DNA of 64,000 nt from an uncultured Actinomycetota bacterium (GCA_963754255.1 CAVWEW010000011.1:34638-98637); one strand, 5' to 3'; counted from the stretch's first letter, positions 730-45,386 are shown. Program-made: numbers and translations. The notes: generated from the sequence alone by a model not told the origin.

Positions 730-2542
730 TCAGCTCGGGGGGGCGAATGCCTCCACCCCTGATTGCCCGGGGACGAAGACTCGGCCGTCACCTGCCGCGG
801 GCGTGGCGAAATGCTCCACCGGGTCGACGAGACGATCCACCTGGAGCTTGCCCGTGAGCGGGCTGAGGCCGTACATGGTCTGATCTTTTCCCCTTCCGCC
901 GTCTGCTCCGGTCGACAGGGCCCACAGGAGGCCGCCGGCGAGGATGGGAGGGCCGTTCGACTCGACACCTGAAGGCGCCCGCCAGGCGACGGAGAAGGTG
1001 GGGGTCGAGGTCGTGCCGCCGATGGTGAGGGCGACGGTTCCACTCGGGCAGGGGACAAAGACGTACGTGACGCTCCTTCCCCCGACCGTCACCGACTGGG
1101 CGGCCTCGGCGCCGAACACGGAACCGCCGCTCGGGCAAACGGTCCCGGAGAAGAGCGGGTGCCCGATTCCGCCGAGCGCAGCCGGATCGAGCAGGTACCC
1201 GGTGCTGACGCCGTTCGTCTGTCTCTTGCCGATCTCGAATATCAGCTTCCCGCCCGGGAGCTGGATCGGGCCGCCCGAGCCGAGGTCGAGGTCAGCCGCG
1301 TTGCAGCGTGTACCAGTCCGACGGAGCGAAGTAGCTGTCGATCCGGGACAGGTCGGGCGAGAGCCCGATGACCGAGTCCCCGTAATCGAAAGGCTGCCCA
1401 GAGCTGGTGTTGGCGCTGTTCCCGGTGGCAACGAAGAGCTCGCCGCCGGAGCTGATCGACGCGCCTCCCGTCGACCAGATGGCCCCCTCCCGGGAGGTGG
1501 GCACCTTGAAGGACTGCAAGGCGCCCTGGCCCGACTCTGCCATGCTGACGACGTAGCCCTGGTACATGCCACAGTCCCCGTTCAGCCCGCCGTACTCGAC
1601 GTAGACCCGGCCGCCGGAAAGGCTCAGGGCCGAGCGCTGCTGTTCGGCGGCGGTGATATAGGTGGACCCGGCGCCGGGCGGGTCGATCTCGTGCGACCAG
1701 GTCACCGTGGCGCTCTGGCGGGTGATCGTCGCCGCCACCAAGACGTGCTCGACGCCTTGCCAGTCAGAGGTGCCCGCTCGCTGTACCTCGCCGGCGACGA
1801 AGAGCTCGCTATGGCCCTGCCCGCTGTGGGCGGCGTCGATGACCGGCGTCCCCGTGATGCCGAGAGGGAAGATGTCGCCGCACCCGGAGAGCCCGGGCGC
1901 TGAGCGGACGGTCGTCGCCGCGACCGGGCTGCCGAGACTGAAATGCCATTCGATGCCGCCCGTGGAGCCGTTGAGGCCCCAGACCATGTCGTCTTCGGTT
2001 CCCACGATCACCTGGTTCCCGATGACGAGAGGCTGGCCGTAGATGCCCCCGGGGAGAGACCTCGTCCAAGCGGGCAGCTTGCCGACAGCGGCGAGCGATG
2101 AATCGACCGTGTCGACGCCGTCCCGGCCGTTCCCGTAGTCATAGGTCAGGAGATTGCCCGTCCGGGCGGCTGCCGGGGGCGCCGTCCCGGGCCGTGCCAC
2201 CATCGTCTGCCGCGCCGCCACCGCCCGCAGGCGTGGCGGAGATACCGTGCCCGCAGTCTCACGCCGGGCGGCACTCGCGGTCGAGGCACTCGAGATCACG
2301 CCGCCGCTCACGAGCAAAGCCGCGCAGGCCGACGCCGCCGCCAGGGAACGGAACCGGCGGCCCCTGTTGAACGAGGCAGCGTTAGCCCGCGCAGCGTCGC
2401 CCGCCCGGAAGGGAACGTCCTTTATGGCCCAGGCCTTCCGTGGCCGATGACCGGTCATTTCGGCACCTCCTGCCTCCGGGGCCGCTTTTCGGACTCCGGT
2501 CAGGCGGAGCGTACCGCTGCCCCGTGGTGCGGGTCGGGTCAC
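730..2542 (-). pseudogene. PQQ-like beta-propeller repeat protein, secreted; reading frame broken near 1295-1306
   Basis: ORF 1292..2542 has signal-like RRFRSLAAASACAALLVSG, then ...IYGQPLVIGNQVIVGTEDDMVWGLNGSTGGIEWHF..., and ends ...APSDWYTLQRG*. ORF 730..1572 continues in another frame as NAADLDLGSGGPIQLPGGKLIFEIGK...LLWALSTG.... Removing one base in ctgCaacgcg restores YTLNAADLDLGS. It is a tandem paralog of the gene at 1..697. Confidence 0.7.
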
Positions 2543-2549
2543 GAGGTGG

Positions 2550-3236
2550 TCAGCCCCGGCGCCGTGGCCCTGGAGGCGAGCTCCTCGGTGGCCGGAGGCC
2601 GATGACGTCGTTGGCCTGCACTTCTCTGGGTGCAGGCTCTGACGGCATGCTCCGCACGACGCCCTGCCGCCGGCGTCTCACCTCGTCGACGATGCCCCAC
2701 CTCGCCGCCTCGCCGGCATCCATGAAGCGGCCGGCAGCACAGGCCGCTTCGACCTGGGCCAGTGGCCGCCGGCACGCTTCTGCCAATCGCTCGTGATAGC
2801 GCTCGACAGACACCTGGTGGTTCTCGACGAGGTGCTCGAGGTGGCTGGCCCTGCCCTCGATCTCCACCTCGGGATCGGCCAACCTGAACCTCGTGTGCTC
2901 GAGCGCCAGCCTCCGGCGGCAGACGGCCGCCACGAGCACGGCCGCCCCCTCCACGCGTCCGAGGCAGGTCACCTCGACCTCCACTCCGACGGCGTCGAGG
3001 ACATCGACCACGGCGAAGGCAGCTTCGAGCGGACCACCGGGGCTGTCGAGTTGCAACTCGATCCTGTCATCGCCGGTGGCGTCGAGCGTCATCAGCTTCG
3101 AGGCCGCCCTCGTGGCGGCACTGTGGTCGAGGCTGCCCCGGAGGACGACCACGCGGCGGTCGAAGAGATGGCTCTCCAGCCAGTCGTCCCACTCCGTCCG
3201 CTCTCCGCTCGTGCTCATCGCTGTTCCCTTCGTCAT
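2550..3236 (-). CDS. ClpP-family (S14 fold) protein lacking the Ser-His-Asp triad (ClpR-like pseudoprotease)
   Basis: 228-aa ORF colinear with ClpP: LQLDSPGGPLEAAFAVVD matches ClpP YINSPGG..AGMAIYD, and RFMDAGEAARWGIVDEV matches ClpP FMSAEEAKEYGLID. Residues aligning with the catalytic Ser, His and Asp are Gly (CLGRVEGAAV), Ala (FRLADPE) and Gly (ACAAGRFM). An ATGA start/stop overlap links it to the upstream HTH gene. Confidence 0.75.
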   Translation of the reverse strand: MTKGTAMSTSGERTEWDDWLESHLFDRRVVVLRGSLDHSAATRAASKLMTLDATGDDRIELQLDSPGGPLEAAFAVVDVLDAVGVEVEVTCLGRVEGAAVLVAAVCRRRLALEHTRFRLADPEVEIEGRASHLEHLVENHQVSVERYHERLAEACRRPLAQVEAACAAGRFMDAGEAARWGIVDEVRRRRQGVVRSMPSEPAPREVQANDVIGLRPPRSSPPGPRRRG

Positions 3237-3574
3237 TTTTGGCTTTCAGGCTGGACCGGAGTGAGCTGCCAGCTCAGCTCGTGGTCGATGGCGGCCGCGT
3301 AACGCTCGAGCGTCGACAGCCTGACGTCGGCGTCGCCTGATTCGAGGCGCGCCACCGCCGACTGCGACGTGCCCATTCTCGCCGCCACTTCCGTTTGCGT
3401 GAGACCGAGCACGACCCGACGTCCCTCCAGCAGGCTGACGAGCTCATGGCGGCGCTCTGCCATTTCCTTGAAGCCGGGGAAGACGGGTAGCCGCCGCCCC
3501 CCTGGACGGGAGTGAAACCCGGCGGAGGAACCTGCAGGCGGCGAGTCGGAGGGTGGAGGGGGTAGCGGCGTCAT
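3233..3574 (-). CDS. XRE/Cro-type helix-turn-helix transcriptional regulator
   Basis: 113-aa ORF with a classic HTH (LGLTQTEVAARMGTSQSAVARLESG). The N-terminus is Pro-rich, so the true start may be the internal Met at 3463. Its stop overlaps the start of 2550..3236. It is divergent from clpP, an arrangement reminiscent of ClgR/PopR regulators next to clpP genes. Confidence 0.75.
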   Translation of the reverse strand: MTPLPPPPSDSPPAGSSAGFHSRPGGRRLPVFPGFKEMAERRHELVSLLEGRRVVLGLTQTEVAARMGTSQSAVARLESGDADVRLSTLERYAAAIDHELSWQLTPVQPESQK

Positions 3575-3594
3575 CTCGTTTTCGATATCTTATA

Positions 3595-3610
3595 TTCGCG
3601 ATACCGCGAA
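3595..3610. promoter_or_regulatory. Perfect palindrome TTCGCG-ATAC-CGCGAA in the HTH/clpP divergent intergenic region (candidate operator)
   Basis: Read directly: ...cttatattcgcgataccgcgaaaggaag..ATG(3626). It sits in the only AT-rich stretch of the locus and overlaps a TATATT -10-like hexamer (3591..3596). It resembles the CGC-N5/6-GCG type ClgR boxes as I remember them. No binding data are available. Confidence 0.3.
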
Positions 3611-3625
3611 AGGAAGGGCTCTGGC

Positions 3626-4330
3626 ATGAACCTCGGCATCCGGCACTCGATCATCCCCACCGTCCTCGACCAGACGAGTCGGGGCGACAGGGCATACGAC
3701 ATCTTCTCGCTTCTGTTGCGGGAGCGAATCGTCTTCCTCGGCCAGGAGGTCGACGACCAGATCGCCAACCTCCTCGTCGCCGAGATCCTCTACCTCGAAG
3801 CCGAGGACCCGGAGAAGGACATCCACCTCTACATCAACTCCCCTGGCGGGCTCGGTTATGCGGGCATGGCGATCTACGACGTGATGCAGCACACCCGTTG
3901 CGAGGTGTCGACGATCTGCGTCGGCATGGGCATGTCGGCGGCGGCCATGATCCTCGCCGGCGGGGCGGCCGGGAAGCGCTTCGCCCTGCCGAACGCCAAG
4001 ATCATGATCCACGAGGGCAGCGCCGGCACGAGAGGGGCACCCCGGGACATGGAGATCCATCTCCGGGAGGTGCTCGCCACGACGAGGAGGATGGTCGACA
4101 TCCTCGCTCACCACACCGGCCGGAGCACCGAGGAGGTGGGCCGCGACATCGAGCGGGACCGATACATGACCGCCGAGGAGGCCAAGGACTACGGCCTCAT
4201 CGACGAGATAATCATGCCCCGCCGAGGCGTCTCGGCCACCCATCTCGAGCTGGCCGTCACCGGCTCGTCGATGGAGGCATCGGTGGCGGCTGCAGTCGCG
4301 GCGGCTCCCCTCACCCACAGCGGTACTTGA
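3626..4330 (+). CDS. clpP: ATP-dependent Clp protease proteolytic subunit, active-site intact, with a ~40-aa C-terminal extension
   Basis: 234-aa ORF: TSRGDRAYDIFSLLLRERIVFLGQEVDDQIANLLVAEILYLEAEDPEKDIHLYINSPGG. The catalytic Ser is in VGMGMSAAAM, the His in KIMIHEGS and the Asp in DIERDRYM. An AGGAAG RBS lies about 10 nt upstream. Confidence 0.85.
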   Translation: MNLGIRHSIIPTVLDQTSRGDRAYDIFSLLLRERIVFLGQEVDDQIANLLVAEILYLEAEDPEKDIHLYINSPGGLGYAGMAIYDVMQHTRCEVSTICVGMGMSAAAMILAGGAAGKRFALPNAKIMIHEGSAGTRGAPRDMEIHLREVLATTRRMVDILAHHTGRSTEEVGRDIERDRYMTAEEAKDYGLIDEIIMPRRGVSATHLELAVTGSSMEASVAAAVAAAPLTHSGT

Positions 4331-4509: not shown

Positions 4510-6264
4510 GTGTCACTTCACTCGTCTTCCTCGCCCGCCACCGTCGTGGCACACCGCCTGAGCAAGTCGCGCGGACTTGCTCCCATCCTCGTCGACGTCG
4601 ACATCACCGTCGGCCCGAGCCACCGGGTGGGCGTCGTGGGACCGAACGGCGTGGGCAAGACGACGCTGCTGCGCATCCTGGCCGGACTGGAGCCCCTCGA
4701 CACCGGCCGAGTGGTGCTCAGCCCGCCCGCGGCCACGGTCGGTTACCTGGCCCAGGAACCAGAGGTCGTGGCCGGAGAGAGCCTGCGGGATCTGCTGCTC
4801 CGGCGCACCGGAGTGGGCGAGGCCGAGCGGCGGCTCGAGGAGGCGGCCGCCGCCCTCGGCAACGGCGCAGGTGCGCCCGGCGGCGGCGCGGGAGAGGGTG
4901 CGCCCACCAACGCCGGAGGCGGTGAGACCGCCGGCAGAGGATCCGGCAGTGGTGCTGCCATGAGCGTCGCCGACCGCTACTCGGTAGCGCTCGAACGCTA
5001 CCTGGCTCTCGGCGGCCCGGACATCGATGCCCGGGTGGGCGGCGTGCTCGACGACCTCGGGATCGCCGAGCGATTGCTCGACGTGCACGTCTCGGACCTG
5101 TCGGGCGGCCAACGAGCCCGATCGTCCCTGGCCGCCTTGTTGCTGTCCCGCTTCGACGTGCTCCTTCTCGATGAGCCGACGAACGATCTCGACTTCGACG
5201 GGCTCGCTCGCCTCGAGTCGTTCCTCGAGCAGCGAGAGGGCGGCCTGGCCGTGGTCTCGCACGACAGGGCGTTCCTCGAGCGGATCGTCACCTCGGTTCT
5301 CGAGATCGAAGAGGCGTCCCACCGGGCGAACGAATACGGCGGCGGCTGGAGCGCCTATCTCGAGGCACGGGAGACCGCCCGCCTCCACGCCGAGCAGGCC
5401 TACGCCGGATACACCGAGGAGCGCGACCGGCTGAAGGCGCGCGAGCGCCTGCAGCGGCAGTGGTCCGTCCAGGGGGTGACGAGGGAGAAACGGAACCCCC
5501 GCGACAACGACAAGGCTCAGCGAGACTTCCGCATCAACCGCACGGAGAAGCAGGCTGCCAAAGTGCGGATCACCGAGAAGGCAATCCACCGGCTCGATCC
5601 CGTGGAGCGGCCCTTCGAGCCGTGGCAGCTCCACCTCGACCTCGCCCGCGCCCGCCGCAGCGGCGACGTCGTGGCCCGGCTGAAGAGCGCCGTCGTCCGG
5701 CGGGGCGAGTGGCACCTCGGCCCGGTCGACCTCGAGGTGCGATGGGCGGACCGGCTCGCCATTCTCGGGCCGAACGGCAGCGGCAAGACGACACTCCTCT
5801 CGGCGCTCCTCGGCCGCCTGCCGCTCGAATCCGGCGAGCAATGGCTGGGTCCTTCGGTGGTAGTCGGAGAGCTCGGCCAGGAAAGGCGGCGCTTCTCGGC
5901 CGGGGGGATCTCGCTGCTCGACGCATTCCTGTCCGCGGCGCCGCTCTCGAACGCCGAGGGGCGCTCGCTGCTGGCCAAGTTCGGCCTCGGTGCCGGTCAC
6001 GTTCTCCGGCCGGCCGGCTCGCTCTCGCCGGGCGAGCGGACAAGGGCGGAGCTGGCACTGTTGATGGCGAGAGGCACGAACTGCCTCGTCCTCGACGAGC
6101 CGACCAACCATCTCGATCTGCCGGCGATCGAGCAGCTCGAGCACGCCCTTCATGCCTGGGAAGGCACGCTCATGCTGGTCACCCACGATCGGCGACTGCT
6201 CGAGTCGGTGGCGCTCAGCCGACGGTTGGAACTTCTCGACGGACACCCCTCTACGCTCCGGTGA
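4510..6264 (+). CDS. ABC-F family ATPase (two NBDs, no transmembrane domain)
   Basis: This is the 3' two-thirds of track ORF 3553..6264; the 5' part of that ORF is an out-of-frame artefact across clpP. A GTG at 4510 is in frame. There are two Walker A motifs (GPNGVGKTTL, GPNGSGKTTL) and two signature/Walker B pairs (LSGGQRARSSLA..LLLDEPTNDLD; LSPGERTRAELA..LVLDEPTNHLD), a charged inter-domain linker, and a Gly-rich insert (GNGAGAPGGGAGEG...). Confidence 0.85.
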   Translation: MSLHSSSSPATVVAHRLSKSRGLAPILVDVDITVGPSHRVGVVGPNGVGKTTLLRILAGLEPLDTGRVVLSPPAATVGYLAQEPEVVAGESLRDLLLRRTGVGEAERRLEEAAAALGNGAGAPGGGAGEGAPTNAGGGETAGRGSGSGAAMSVADRYSVALERYLALGGPDIDARVGGVLDDLGIAERLLDVHVSDLSGGQRARSSLAALLLSRFDVLLLDEPTNDLDFDGLARLESFLEQREGGLAVVSHDRAFLERIVTSVLEIEEASHRANEYGGGWSAYLEARETARLHAEQAYAGYTEERDRLKARERLQRQWSVQGVTREKRNPRDNDKAQRDFRINRTEKQAAKVRITEKAIHRLDPVERPFEPWQLHLDLARARRSGDVVARLKSAVVRRGEWHLGPVDLEVRWADRLAILGPNGSGKTTLLSALLGRLPLESGEQWLGPSVVVGELGQERRRFSAGGISLLDAFLSAAPLSNAEGRSLLAKFGLGAGHVLRPAGSLSPGERTRAELALLMARGTNCLVLDEPTNHLDLPAIEQLEHALHAWEGTLMLVTHDRRLLESVALSRRLELLDGHPSTLR

Positions 6265-43261: not shown

Positions 43262-45386
43262 ATGAAGCAGGTCACGATCGACCGACTTGCTCCGGTGCTT
43301 CAACCGCGTCATGTCGCAGTGCTCGGGGCCTCGAGCCAGCGTCACACACTCGGCAACCAGGTCCTGCAGAACTTTACGCAGGAGGGCTATCCCGGCTTGG
43401 TCACCGCCGTCAACGAGCGAGTCGAAAGCCTGGAGGGGCGGCCGACCGTGCCGTCCATCGAGGACCTGGAGCGCGGTCTCGACGTTGCCATGGTCTGCAT
43501 CGCGGCACCGTCGTTGCCCGATGTGCTCGTGAGGCTCGACGCCATTGGATGCCGATCGGCTGTCGTGCCGACGGCGGGCTTCAGCCCGGCGCAATACGAG
43601 GCGCTGAGAGAGGCATGTCGTTCGATCGACATGACAGTCACAGGACCGAACTGCCTCGGCATTCTGAGCCTGGCCGACTCCGCTCCCCTGTGGACCGCGA
43701 GGTATCGAACGACGGTTCCTCGCGGCGGCGTCGGTCTCGTCGCTCAGTCCGGATCGGCGGCTATCTCGATCATGAGTTCGCTCGGGCTCGGCTTCTCGAG
43801 AATCATCTCGAGCGGGAGCGAGCTCGAAGTTAACTCCGCCGACTACATCCGTTGGCTCGTCGACGACCCGGCGACAAGCTGTATCGGCCTCATAATCGAA
43901 TCCATCAAGTCACCTGACGAGTTCGCCGCTGCCGTTGCCGATGCGCAGCAAGCGGACAAGCAAATCGTCGCCCTGAAGGTGGGCCGGTCGGTGATCGGCT
44001 CCCTGGCGGCCCAGGCACATACGGGTGCGTTGGTAAGCGATTACGACGCCTATGTCGCCTTCTTCGCACGCATCGGCGTCGCCACCGTCCTCGACTACGA
44101 CGAGATGGTCGCGACGCTGCAGTGCCTCTCTAACGACAGGCTCCCAAGGTCGCCCGGCGGCCGCATCGGAATCGTCGGGATCTCCGGCGGCCAGACTGCA
44201 CTCGCCTGCGACTTGGCCAGCGAGGCCGGAGCCGAACTTGCCGAGTTCGCTCCGGCGACGATCAGCCGCGTCGAGGCCGCTCTTCCCGACGCGCCAGGAA
44301 GCAACCCTGTCGACATCGGAGCGAGCGTCGGCTTCGAACGGCGCAGGCCGGACGAGGCGCTGCAGGCCGTGCTCGACGATCCGGGCGTAGATTCTGTCCT
44401 CGTCATCCAGGACGCGCAGAGCACGCTTCCGCTCGATTCGAGTCACATGTACATCACGCAGGTACGCACCGTCGAACGGGTGAGCCGGACTAGCAAGAAG
44501 CCCATCGTCATCGCGTCGAGCTCGGCGGGAGAAACCCATCCCATGCTCGAGGAGCTCGTGGAGAACGCGGCGACGCCCCTCATCCGAGGGCTTCGCCCCG
44601 CACTGGTCGCACTGCGAAACCTGGCGGTTCGCGCGGCCGTACCGAAGGACCCGCAGCCCTCGGCGCGGTTCCCCGATCTCGAGCGGCAAGTTGCAGAGCA
44701 CCGTGGGCCCCTTCCTTACCCGCTCGTGCGGTCCCTTCTCGCCGCGTACGAGATTCCCTTCGTTCGGTCCACTCTCGCCAGGGACAGGGCCGAAGCGATG
44801 GCCTCGGCGGCCGACATCGGCTATCCGCTGGTGGTGAAGGTCGCTTCGACCGACATCCCGCACCGGCTCGAGGTCGGCGGCATCGTGAGCGACGTGCAGG
44901 ATGCCTCCTCGCTCGAAGTCGCTCTCGAACAGATCGGCGGCAATCTCGCTCGCGCCGCGCCTGAAGCCCGGCTCGATGGGTACGAGCTGCAGGAATACAT
45001 CCCGCGGGCGGTCGAGAGCATCGTCGGCTTCGCAACCGCGCCGCCGTTCGGACCGATGATGGTCGTCGGGACGGGAGGCTCGTTTGTCGAGCTGATCGGT
45101 GACCGCTCTGCCGATCTCGCGCCACTCGAGATCTCGCAGGCCACCGATATGATTCGCAGAACAGCCCTCGAAAAGAATCCTTGGGGGCTACCGAGGCAAG
45201 GTCGCCGAGACCAGCCTCGAGGGCCTGGCAGACACGCTGTGCAAATTCTCACTGCTGGCCAATGATTTTCGCGCCCTCATCTGCGAGGGAGATCTCAACC
45301 CCGCTCTGGTCGAGGTCGGAACAGGACGGGTGGTTGTCGTCGACGCGCTCCTGATCGTCAGTGGCCGCTTACGTAGTGACGGTTAA
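43262..45386 (+). pseudogene. ADP-forming acyl-CoA synthetase (CoA-binding + succinyl-CoA-ligase-like + ATP-grasp domains), frameshifted near 45176
   Basis: VAVLGASSQRHTLGNQVLQN...TGPNCLGI...VGLVAQSGSAA...AHTGAL, then a C-terminal ATP-grasp part (IGYPLVVKVAS.DIPHRLEVGGI). The track ORF ends in junk (..EKNPWGLPRQGRRDQ). Shifting one base after gaaaag gives ..EKILGGYRGKVAETSLEGLADTLCKFSLLANDF...GDLNPALV... with a stop at 45384-45386. Confidence 0.8.

Follow-up and report, generated by a model that had tools for sequence, protein, structure and literature searches.

What could be the role of a ClpP homolog which has lost its catalytic residues, is encoded together with a transcriptional regulator and lies back to back with a second, catalytically intact ClpP? 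The question is raised by a locus at positions 2550-4330 in a stretch of DNA from an uncultured Actinomycetota bacterium (GCA_963754255.1 CAVWEW010000011.1:34638-98637). The whole stretch, 64,000 nucleotides in length, is referred to as the window, and positions are counted from its first letter. The host is a soil actinobacterium of the order Acidimicrobiales. The locus consists of a gene for an XRE-family helix-turn-helix (HTH) regulator, a gene for the non-catalytic ClpP (here dead ClpP) and a divergent gene for the intact one (active ClpP). The reading we favour, at about even odds (probability roughly 0.5), is that dead ClpP serves the neighbouring active ClpP as a ClpR-like structural partner and that both are co-regulated by the XRE protein, which would also regulate its own synthesis. 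The coding features are as follows.

2550..3236, minus strand: non-catalytic, putatively ClpR-like ClpP paralog, 228 aa, open reading frame (ORF); alternative start Met7 at 3218
3233..3236, minus strand: ATGA in which the HTH stop overlaps the dead clpP start, read in the sequence
3233..3574, minus strand: XRE-family HTH regulator, 113 aa, ORF; Pfam HTH_3/HTH_31
3626..4330, plus strand: catalytically intact ClpP, 234 aa, ORF; Pfam and NCBIfam matches
4217..4327, plus strand: C-terminal extension of active ClpP, PRRG[VIL]SA (motif 4217-4237) and, after it, a variable tail, from ortholog comparison

The non-catalytic ClpP paralog

A preliminary description of the locus had presented the 228-aa product as ClpP-like along its whole length with a preserved SPGG motif. 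This is borne out by its sole Pfam match, CLP_protease (E=3e-26), which covers profile positions 10-180 of 182, and by the presence of SPGG. SppA and NfeD, named there as possible alternative families, gave no Pfam match to this product. Among NCBIfam models, the best eight matches are ClpP models, followed by weak matches to phage ClpP-like prohead-protease models. All NCBIfam ClpP cut-offs are nevertheless missed, the best score being 97 bits versus 228 bits required.

Three independent alignments concur in finding no catalytic residues in dead ClpP. When dead ClpP was compared with solved ClpPs by phmmer, the catalytic serine column fell into a 2-residue gap (GRV--EGA vs GQACSMG), the histidine was replaced by alanine (RLADP vs MIHQP) and the aspartate by glycine (AAGRFM vs DRDRFM). 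MAFFT alignment with E. coli ClpP gave Gly, Ala and Gly in place of Ser, His and Asp, with SPGG retained, which is exactly the triad loss that had been proposed from manual alignment.

The same is true for the family as a whole. A word-indexed search retrieved 124 homologs of dead ClpP, nearly all of them from Acidimicrobiales metagenome-assembled genomes (MAGs). In 120 of these homologs, the column of E. coli Ser97 is occupied by glycine in 112 cases and that of Asp171 by glycine in 106, while no histidine at all is found in the His122 column. Exhaustive profile search among 1.84 billion cluster representatives delimited the dead family to 287 clusters, defined at 50% identity, with E<=1e-30. 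A full triad is present in none of the 150 best-ranked representatives of these clusters. Invariant positions are retained throughout the family, the reading frame is intact in related loci other than those truncated at a contig end, and the median ratio of nonsynonymous to synonymous substitution rates (dN/dS) is 0.175 (Nei-Gojobori, 228 species pairs). The dead gene is under purifying selection. Judged by its sequence, dead ClpP is a non-peptidase homolog of the ClpP family (Pfam PF00574 / MEROPS S14). In databases, the dead family is everywhere named "ATP-dependent Clp protease proteolytic subunit"; it deserves annotation as a non-peptidase homolog.

The AlphaFold2 model of dead ClpP (mean predicted local distance difference test score, pLDDT, 88.8) displays the ClpP fold with the long handle helix, residues 130-155, preserved. 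Foldseek aligned it to ClpP structures, M. tuberculosis ClpP1P2 included, with target-normalised template modelling (TM) scores of about 0.9, and the best solved structures listed are ordinary bacterial ClpPs. Several surfaces are missing. Helix A begins at residue 10, which leaves no N-terminal axial hairpin for contact with the unfoldase; residues 190-228 at the C-terminus are disordered. The aromatic pocket for unfoldase docking is absent as well. Positions equivalent to E. coli Tyr60, Tyr62, Phe82 and Phe112 are Glu, Gln, Ala and Leu in dead ClpP and His, Tyr, His and Phe in active ClpP. These columns are polar or variable throughout the dead family. The handle motif of dead ClpP is non-canonical (DPEVxxxGxAS), and so is that of active ClpP (HQGSAGTRGAPRD).

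Three further proteins were considered as possible fusions. P0304 (470 aa) and P0342 (363 aa) are tandem ClpP-ClpP proteins with one domain devoid of the triad, the cluster of P0342 including Planctomycetota. With the dead-family profile, each of their domains reaches no more than about 90 bits, and they were rejected as members and no longer counted as support for co-assembly; they join a dead and an active ClpP domain in a single chain outside the dead family. In P0115 (188 aa), an HTH_3 domain at the C-terminus is attached to the first two-thirds of a dead-family ClpP. This protein comes from one 1.9-kb Joint Genome Institute contig, possibly an assembly chimera, and was considered too weak as evidence of fusion.

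The conserved three-gene unit

We wondered if the arrangement also occurs in related genomes. The dead-family profile, run against a single genome for each GTDB species, detected 80 loci, 73 of which display the order clpP(-), HTH(+), dead clpP(+). The remaining seven lack a clpP or HTH call and mostly lie at a contig or locus end. In a scan of metagenome contigs that started from active ClpP instead, about 30 of 31 loci carry the HTH and dead genes, so the arrangement is conserved from both sides. All orthologs of active ClpP with at least 63% identity and enough upstream flank are accompanied by the two genes, with the exception of locus L120. This locus (L120:5205-6618) contains the only ClpP of the active type without HTH and dead genes; it has the handle HQGSAG and the PRRG tail and is neighboured by a divergent ArsR-type HTH_20 gene upstream and by hypF/hypD downstream. 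The unit is also carried by a cultured isolate, Acidiferrimicrobium sp. IK, assembly GCA_025499425.1.

Tight coupling of the dead gene to the regulator gene is a further conserved property. In the window, the reported ATGA overlap is real, ATG occupying 3236-3234 and TGA 3235-3233. NCBI annotation places the start of the dead gene at Met7, position 3218 (P0001, 222 aa); either start keeps the two genes tightly coupled. An NTGA overlap of the HTH stop with the dead-gene start occurs in 54/75 loci, and in 65/75 the dead start codon is located within -4 to +15 nt of the HTH stop. Codons for acidic residues at the C-terminus of the HTH protein (GAGGAG/GAGGAC) constitute a Shine-Dalgarno-like sequence upstream of the dead-gene start.

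Since flanking genes vary among loci, the three genes travel as a unit. Pairwise distances of active and dead ClpP are correlated (Pearson r=0.85), and divergence of all three proteins is correlated, which fits their co-inheritance. The best explanation of these patterns is that the unit is self-contained, usually present in one copy per genome and vertically inherited in Acidimicrobiales. Complete units were additionally detected in MAGs labelled Candidatus Dormibacteria (L035, L070), and a close homolog of the HTH protein (P0227) in a MAG labelled Candidatus Dormiibacterota; these cases are explained either by horizontal transfer from Acidimicrobiales or by errors in binning. One MAG (MFD09603.bin.4.860) contains two copies, L001 and L002, each at a contig end, with dead ClpPs 80% and 91% identical to that of the window. 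Duplication or a mixture of strains could account for them.

The divergent clpP, separated from the HTH gene by 51 bp, encodes a strong match to the family (Pfam E=1.4e-72; NF001368 277.9 bits, cut-off 249). The intact triad attributed to it is indeed present, with Ser104 (GMGMS), His129 (MIHEG) and Asp178 (ERDRY). Its N-terminal loop is canonical and its docking pocket near-canonical. The tail of about 40 aa that had been called unusual exists, extending 37 aa past the Pfam domain, yet it is a trait of the whole subfamily. The PRRG[VIL]SA motif is conserved in orthologs from related loci, and their tails beyond GLIDEI are variable, mostly 17-42 aa long and frequently ending in Ala, Gly or Val. 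The handle motif is MIHQGSAGTRGAPRDME where canonical ClpPs have MIHQPLGG (MIHQPLGGxxGQAxD), both in the window (3923-4330) and in orthologs L001-L128. By these two sequence features, the handle motif and C-terminal PRRG[VIL]SA, active ClpP forms a distinct subfamily. It is more conserved than its dead counterpart: mean pairwise identity over 66 species is 0.80 (median dN/dS 0.049), in contrast to 0.51 for dead ClpP.

The regulator, the shared intergenic region and the surroundings

The 113-aa regulator matches Pfam HTH_3 (2e-10) and HTH_31, and NCBI calls a protein of the same length (P0121). Its start at 3574 falls at the position of a conserved GAGATG relative to the operator described below. 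Residues 1 to about 37 (window 3464-3574) are Pro/Ser-rich and lineage-specific, and the conserved core spans residues 38-113 approximately. The full Pro/Ser-rich extension occurs only in the closest relatives of the window; most orthologs are 85-92 aa long, and most start near the conserved GAGATG. The median dN/dS of the HTH gene is 0.099.

The closest solved relatives of the HTH protein are M. tuberculosis HigA3, phage 434 repressor and HipB, with HigA2 also among them, and its best NCBIfam match is an antitoxin model. The preliminary description had drawn a parallel with ClgR and PopR, which does not extend to family membership. Although a ClgR structure exists in the PDB, no ClgR-named chain is found among the 38 PDB matches of the HTH protein at E<=1. 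Neither name appears among the best 120 homologs listed, and none of the listed orthologs ends in Ala-Ala, their C-termini being charged (GERGR, RPLED, PESQK). The conserved operator of the unit differs from the motifs reported for ClgR (GTTCGC-N5-GCG) and PopR (TCTGCC-N3-GGCAGA) (PMC9775585). On its sequence, the HTH protein is a generic XRE protein, and the parallel is one of functional analogy.

The region between the divergent genes contains the following elements.

3586..3603, no strand assigned: candidate operator, window copy, plus strand TATCTTATATTCGCGATA; family-wide inverted repeat
3591..3596, plus strand: TATATT, putative -10-like box of active clpP, read in the sequence
3595..3610: perfect palindrome TTCGCG-ATAC-CGCGAA, read in the sequence, specific to the window
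3610-3617, plus strand: sequence resembling a ribosome-binding site, AAGGAAGG, of active clpP, read in the sequence 3' of TATATT

The palindrome TTCGCGATACCGCGAA at 3595-3610 and the TATATT box at 3591-3596 had both been noted before, and both are present. The palindrome, unique in the window (0.01 expected), is however not conserved. The closest relatives have TTCGTCCTATCGCGAA (L001) and TTCGTCGTATCGCGAA (L002) at its site, and the arm nearer to the active clpP start is unconserved in L001, L002 and L004. TTCGC-N6-GCGAA with at most one mismatch was found in only 4/73 intergenic regions, and the palindrome was rejected as operator. It overlaps one half-site of another inverted repeat which is conserved.

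Alignment of intergenic regions revealed the consensus of this repeat, G-n-TATCTC(A/G)-N4-T(G/A)AGATA-(T/C)-C. Of 74 intergenic regions, 66 contain a match at 11 or more of 14 positions, and of 1475 150-nt segments drawn at random from these loci none does. Hardly any variation is seen in the outer quartets, TATC and GATA, and the window, L001 and L002 share an unchanged 32-nt block around the operator (TATCGCGAATATAAGATATCGAAAACGAGATG). Inside the window taken by itself, two matches at three mismatches versus 0.53 expected are not significant, and the second of them, at 43762, lies inside a long ORF and was taken as chance; the weight given to the operator comes from its conserved position, not from the match within the window. 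The stretch of the recognition helix (MGTSQSAVARLE) is nearly invariant across loci, which fits the near-invariant quartets.

Read by eye, the operator overlaps -10/-35-like boxes of both divergent genes: TATATT of clpP lies inside the repeat, and TAAGAT of the HTH gene on the opposite strand. In several loci the region is interrupted. An insertion of about 2.2 kb with an IS1595-family transposase separates active clpP from the HTH gene in L030:3460-5680, L065:3570-5730, L067 and probably L076. The insertion in L067 is the same as that in L065, and that in L030 apparently lies within the operator palindrome, flanked by its half-sites. The loci concerned apparently fall into different sequence groups, an indication that insertion here has taken place more than once.

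Genes around the unit are less constant. Downstream of the dead gene lies a PQQ/BamB-like beta-propeller gene (1292..2542, minus strand), outside the conserved unit. Two secreted beta-propeller genes had been proposed to extend the operon after an 8-nt gap. The first of these ORFs matches PQQ_2, if weakly (E=1.2e-6), and the second has no Pfam match. The gap (2543-2549) is 7 nt, and the start codon of the ORF beyond it is uncertain. Propeller homologs directly follow the dead clpP in only 4 of about 75 loci (L001, L003, L013, L014), which speaks against the proposed extension. The first ORF has an RRF-containing N-terminal stretch resembling a twin-arginine translocation (Tat) signal. ORFs 730-1572 and 1292-2542, both on the minus strand, overlap by 280 nt, and at least one of their starts is over-extended. 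On the other side, beyond active clpP, an ABC-F type ATPase gene is found in the window (4513-6264, plus strand; two ABC domains read from the ORF translation) and in L082:6525-8192 (two Pfam ABC_tran matches). Both also have a cytidine/tRNA deaminase gene in the vicinity, this synteny being confined to some lineages.

As for other clp genes, no protein with ClpX-like Walker A was found in about 115 loci of the active-ClpP type (6-kb flanks) or in the 64-kb window, and the window contains no other ClpP. By comparison, clpX is situated immediately downstream in 25/39 ordinary ClpP loci of the same scan. A published table for cultured Acidimicrobiaceae lists trigger factor, ClpP and ClpX with neighbouring accession numbers (PMC10490939, supplementary table). 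Such numbering suggests that a tig-clpP-clpX cluster exists in this class and that a second ClpP is encoded elsewhere. It is plausible that the three-gene unit is an accessory Clp system. PADLOC defence-system models matched neither ClpP.

Possible role of the dead subunit and relation to known systems

Under the favoured reading, a dimer of the small XRE protein would bind TATCTC(A/G)-N4-T(G/A)AGATA between the divergent genes, in their common promoter region, and would control both active clpP and its own two-gene operon. Repression at this shared operator would be more likely than activation, and it is favoured for both units because the repeat overlaps the -10/-35-like boxes of both genes. 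Control of the clp genes by the HTH protein is what we infer from the conserved operator alone. The second cistron has kept the ClpP fold and the handle helix and has lost the triad, the Asp/Arg pair, the axial loop and the docking pocket. As a rule, neighbouring ClpP paralogs assemble together, and dead ClpP would likewise enter a heteromeric core with active ClpP, in the manner of ClpR/ClpP, P. aeruginosa ClpP2 and actinobacterial ClpP1P2. The observations that bear on this predicted co-assembly are the genomic linkage of the two genes and their correlated divergence. In such a core, active ClpP alone would supply the active sites and dock ClpX or ClpC, and dead subunits would shape or cap the chamber. 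The divergent layout with a shared operator would keep both types of subunit co-expressed, and the XRE protein would set their dose.

Several observations weigh against this view. The dead gene is coupled to the regulator and not to active clpP, a layout reminiscent of toxin-antitoxin or co-repressor systems, and its role may be regulatory. The closest analogues of the regulator, ClgR and PopR, are activators. The pair equivalent to Asp170/Arg171, beside the catalytic Asp, is Ala-Ala in dead ClpP of the window, and the column of the Arg-equivalent sensor is variable across the dead family; loss of this oligomerisation-sensor pair could weaken standard pairing of rings. Dead ClpP shows no greater similarity to active ClpP (49.7 bits) than to distant ClpPs (69.7 bits). 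Locus L120 means that active ClpP does not obligately depend on the dead subunit in every lineage. Finally, consensus scanning detected no full sigma-70 promoter, and the promoter boxes were read by hand.

In another reading, which we regard as unlikely, dead ClpP would not be a core subunit but a ClpP-derived pseudoenzyme recruited as signalling partner of the XRE regulator, a transcriptional co-regulator with a protease fold. It would report Clp assembly or load to the shared promoter, either through contact with the regulator or through competition with active ClpP for ring pairing. As a mainly regulatory partner (co-repressor, anti-repressor or assembly sensor), the main rival reading, to which we likewise give little credence, dead ClpP would be made in fixed ratio to the HTH protein, and its free form would bind this protein and tune both promoters in a toxin/antitoxin-like manner. 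The antitoxin-like layout, with the small HTH gene first and the conserved 4-nt overlap, agrees with this, as do the kinship of the regulator with HigA3, HigA2 and HipB antitoxins and phage repressors, its best NCBIfam match to an antitoxin model and the absence from dead ClpP of every surface needed to work with unfoldases. P0115 as a possible dead-ClpP/HTH fusion would point in the same direction, but it is one 1.9-kb contig and maybe an assembly artefact. A regulatory partner does not require near-perfect linkage to a catalytic ClpP, and the preserved handle and full ClpP core suggest that oligomer contacts are still used. Lower still we place an inhibitor or decoy, which would form inactive mixes with housekeeping ClpP1P2 or cap active ClpP and so lower Clp proteolysis. 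A ClpP fold devoid of triad and docking pocket would suit this task, clpX is missing near loci of the active type in contrast to 25/39 ordinary ones, and accession numbering suggests a separate tig-clpP-clpX in cultured Acidimicrobiaceae. A usually single copy, joint inheritance, purifying selection and co-evolution with active ClpP nevertheless fit a constitutive partner better, and neither ClpP matches a defence-system model.

It is very improbable that the locus is a local ClgR/PopR regulon, with an orthologous regulator and a pair equivalent to clpP1P2 or clpP3P4. An XRE-type regulator does adjoin clpP genes in an actinobacterium here, and PopR, a paralog of ClgR, controls the second clpP pair in Streptomyces. 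On the contrary, the 38 PDB matches include no ClgR chain, Ala-Ala is absent, the operator is unrelated and the clpP genes are divergent instead of forming one operon. Furthermore, Streptomyces ClpP1 and ClpP2 both have canonical triads, which one partner lacks here (PMC9765437). Least credible of all is a decaying relic without function. Loss of all catalytic residues and evolution faster than that of the neighbours (identity 0.51 vs 0.80) might be expected of a relic; a dN/dS of 0.175, intact frames, 287 clusters, conserved coupling and a confident structural model are not. A decaying pseudogene is effectively excluded because of purifying selection and family-wide conservation.

Full-text literature searches retrieved no paper on a non-catalytic ClpP or ClpR from actinobacteria or on this unit, in line with the preliminary description, which knew of no such pair. 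In the literature covered by these searches, a ClpP/ClpR-type pair under its own XRE regulator has no precedent in Actinobacteria. The dead family would represent a separate bacterial case of triad-less ClpP, beyond plastids, cyanobacteria and apicoplasts. Three genes and an 18-bp operator, available also in a cultured isolate, would make a compact system for the function and dosage of a dead subunit.

Non-catalytic ClpP subunits are textbook knowledge for plastids, cyanobacteria and apicoplasts. Their ClpR representatives are established in plastids and cyanobacteria (PMC6508832, PMC7966870). Like ClpR, dead ClpP has the ClpP fold without the Ser-His-Asp triad, is kept under selection and is encoded beside a catalytic ClpP, with which it is probably co-regulated; it would be expected to act as a structural subunit in a mixed core. 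Unlike ClpR, it resides in Actinomycetota (Acidimicrobiales), it has moreover neither N-terminal loop nor docking pocket, and it is co-translated with a transcription factor and not with ClpP.

P. aeruginosa ClpP2 resembles dead ClpP in being a second ClpP beside an active one. It is not known to work with an unfoldase alone, and its complex is one-sided; the same one-sidedness is predicted here. P. aeruginosa ClpP2 keeps its catalytic triad, unlike dead ClpP, and no dedicated regulator is known beside it. Heterocomplexes of ClpP1 and ClpP2 have been described in this species (PMC12451819).

The regulator can be compared with two groups. Similarly to PopR/ClgR of Streptomyces, Corynebacterium and Mycobacterium, it is a small XRE protein which would be dedicated to clpP genes, as PopR is to an alternative pair. 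It differs from them in having no specific kinship, another operator and no Ala-Ala degron, and it shares an operon with the dead subunit; its promoter-overlapping operator suggests repression. With type II toxin-antitoxin systems of the HigA/HipB type, the unit shares a small HTH gene in first position, a stop/start overlap and a palindromic operator at its own promoter. In contrast to them, the second gene encodes a ClpP-fold pseudoenzyme with ClpP matches only and no known toxin, and the unit is usually single-copy, spread across Acidimicrobiales MAGs and always paired with a catalytic ClpP.

Actinobacterial ClpP1P2 of Mycobacterium and Streptomyces, a heterotetradecamer, also consists of two ClpP paralogs encoded side by side. 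In Streptomyces, ClpP2 can do without its triad, and one ring is responsible for catalysis and the other for docking of the ATPases (PMC9765437). Both subunits of ClpP1P2 keep their triads, however, and ATPases are docked by the ClpP2 ring, the less catalytic of the two, whereas here the dead subunit is without docking features and the active one keeps them. Also, unlike in the clpP1-clpP2(-clpX) operon, the genes are divergent, with neither tig nor clpX nearby. Sites of one ring being dispensable in Streptomyces ClpP1P2, a pair in which one partner has no active sites at all would represent a natural end-point.

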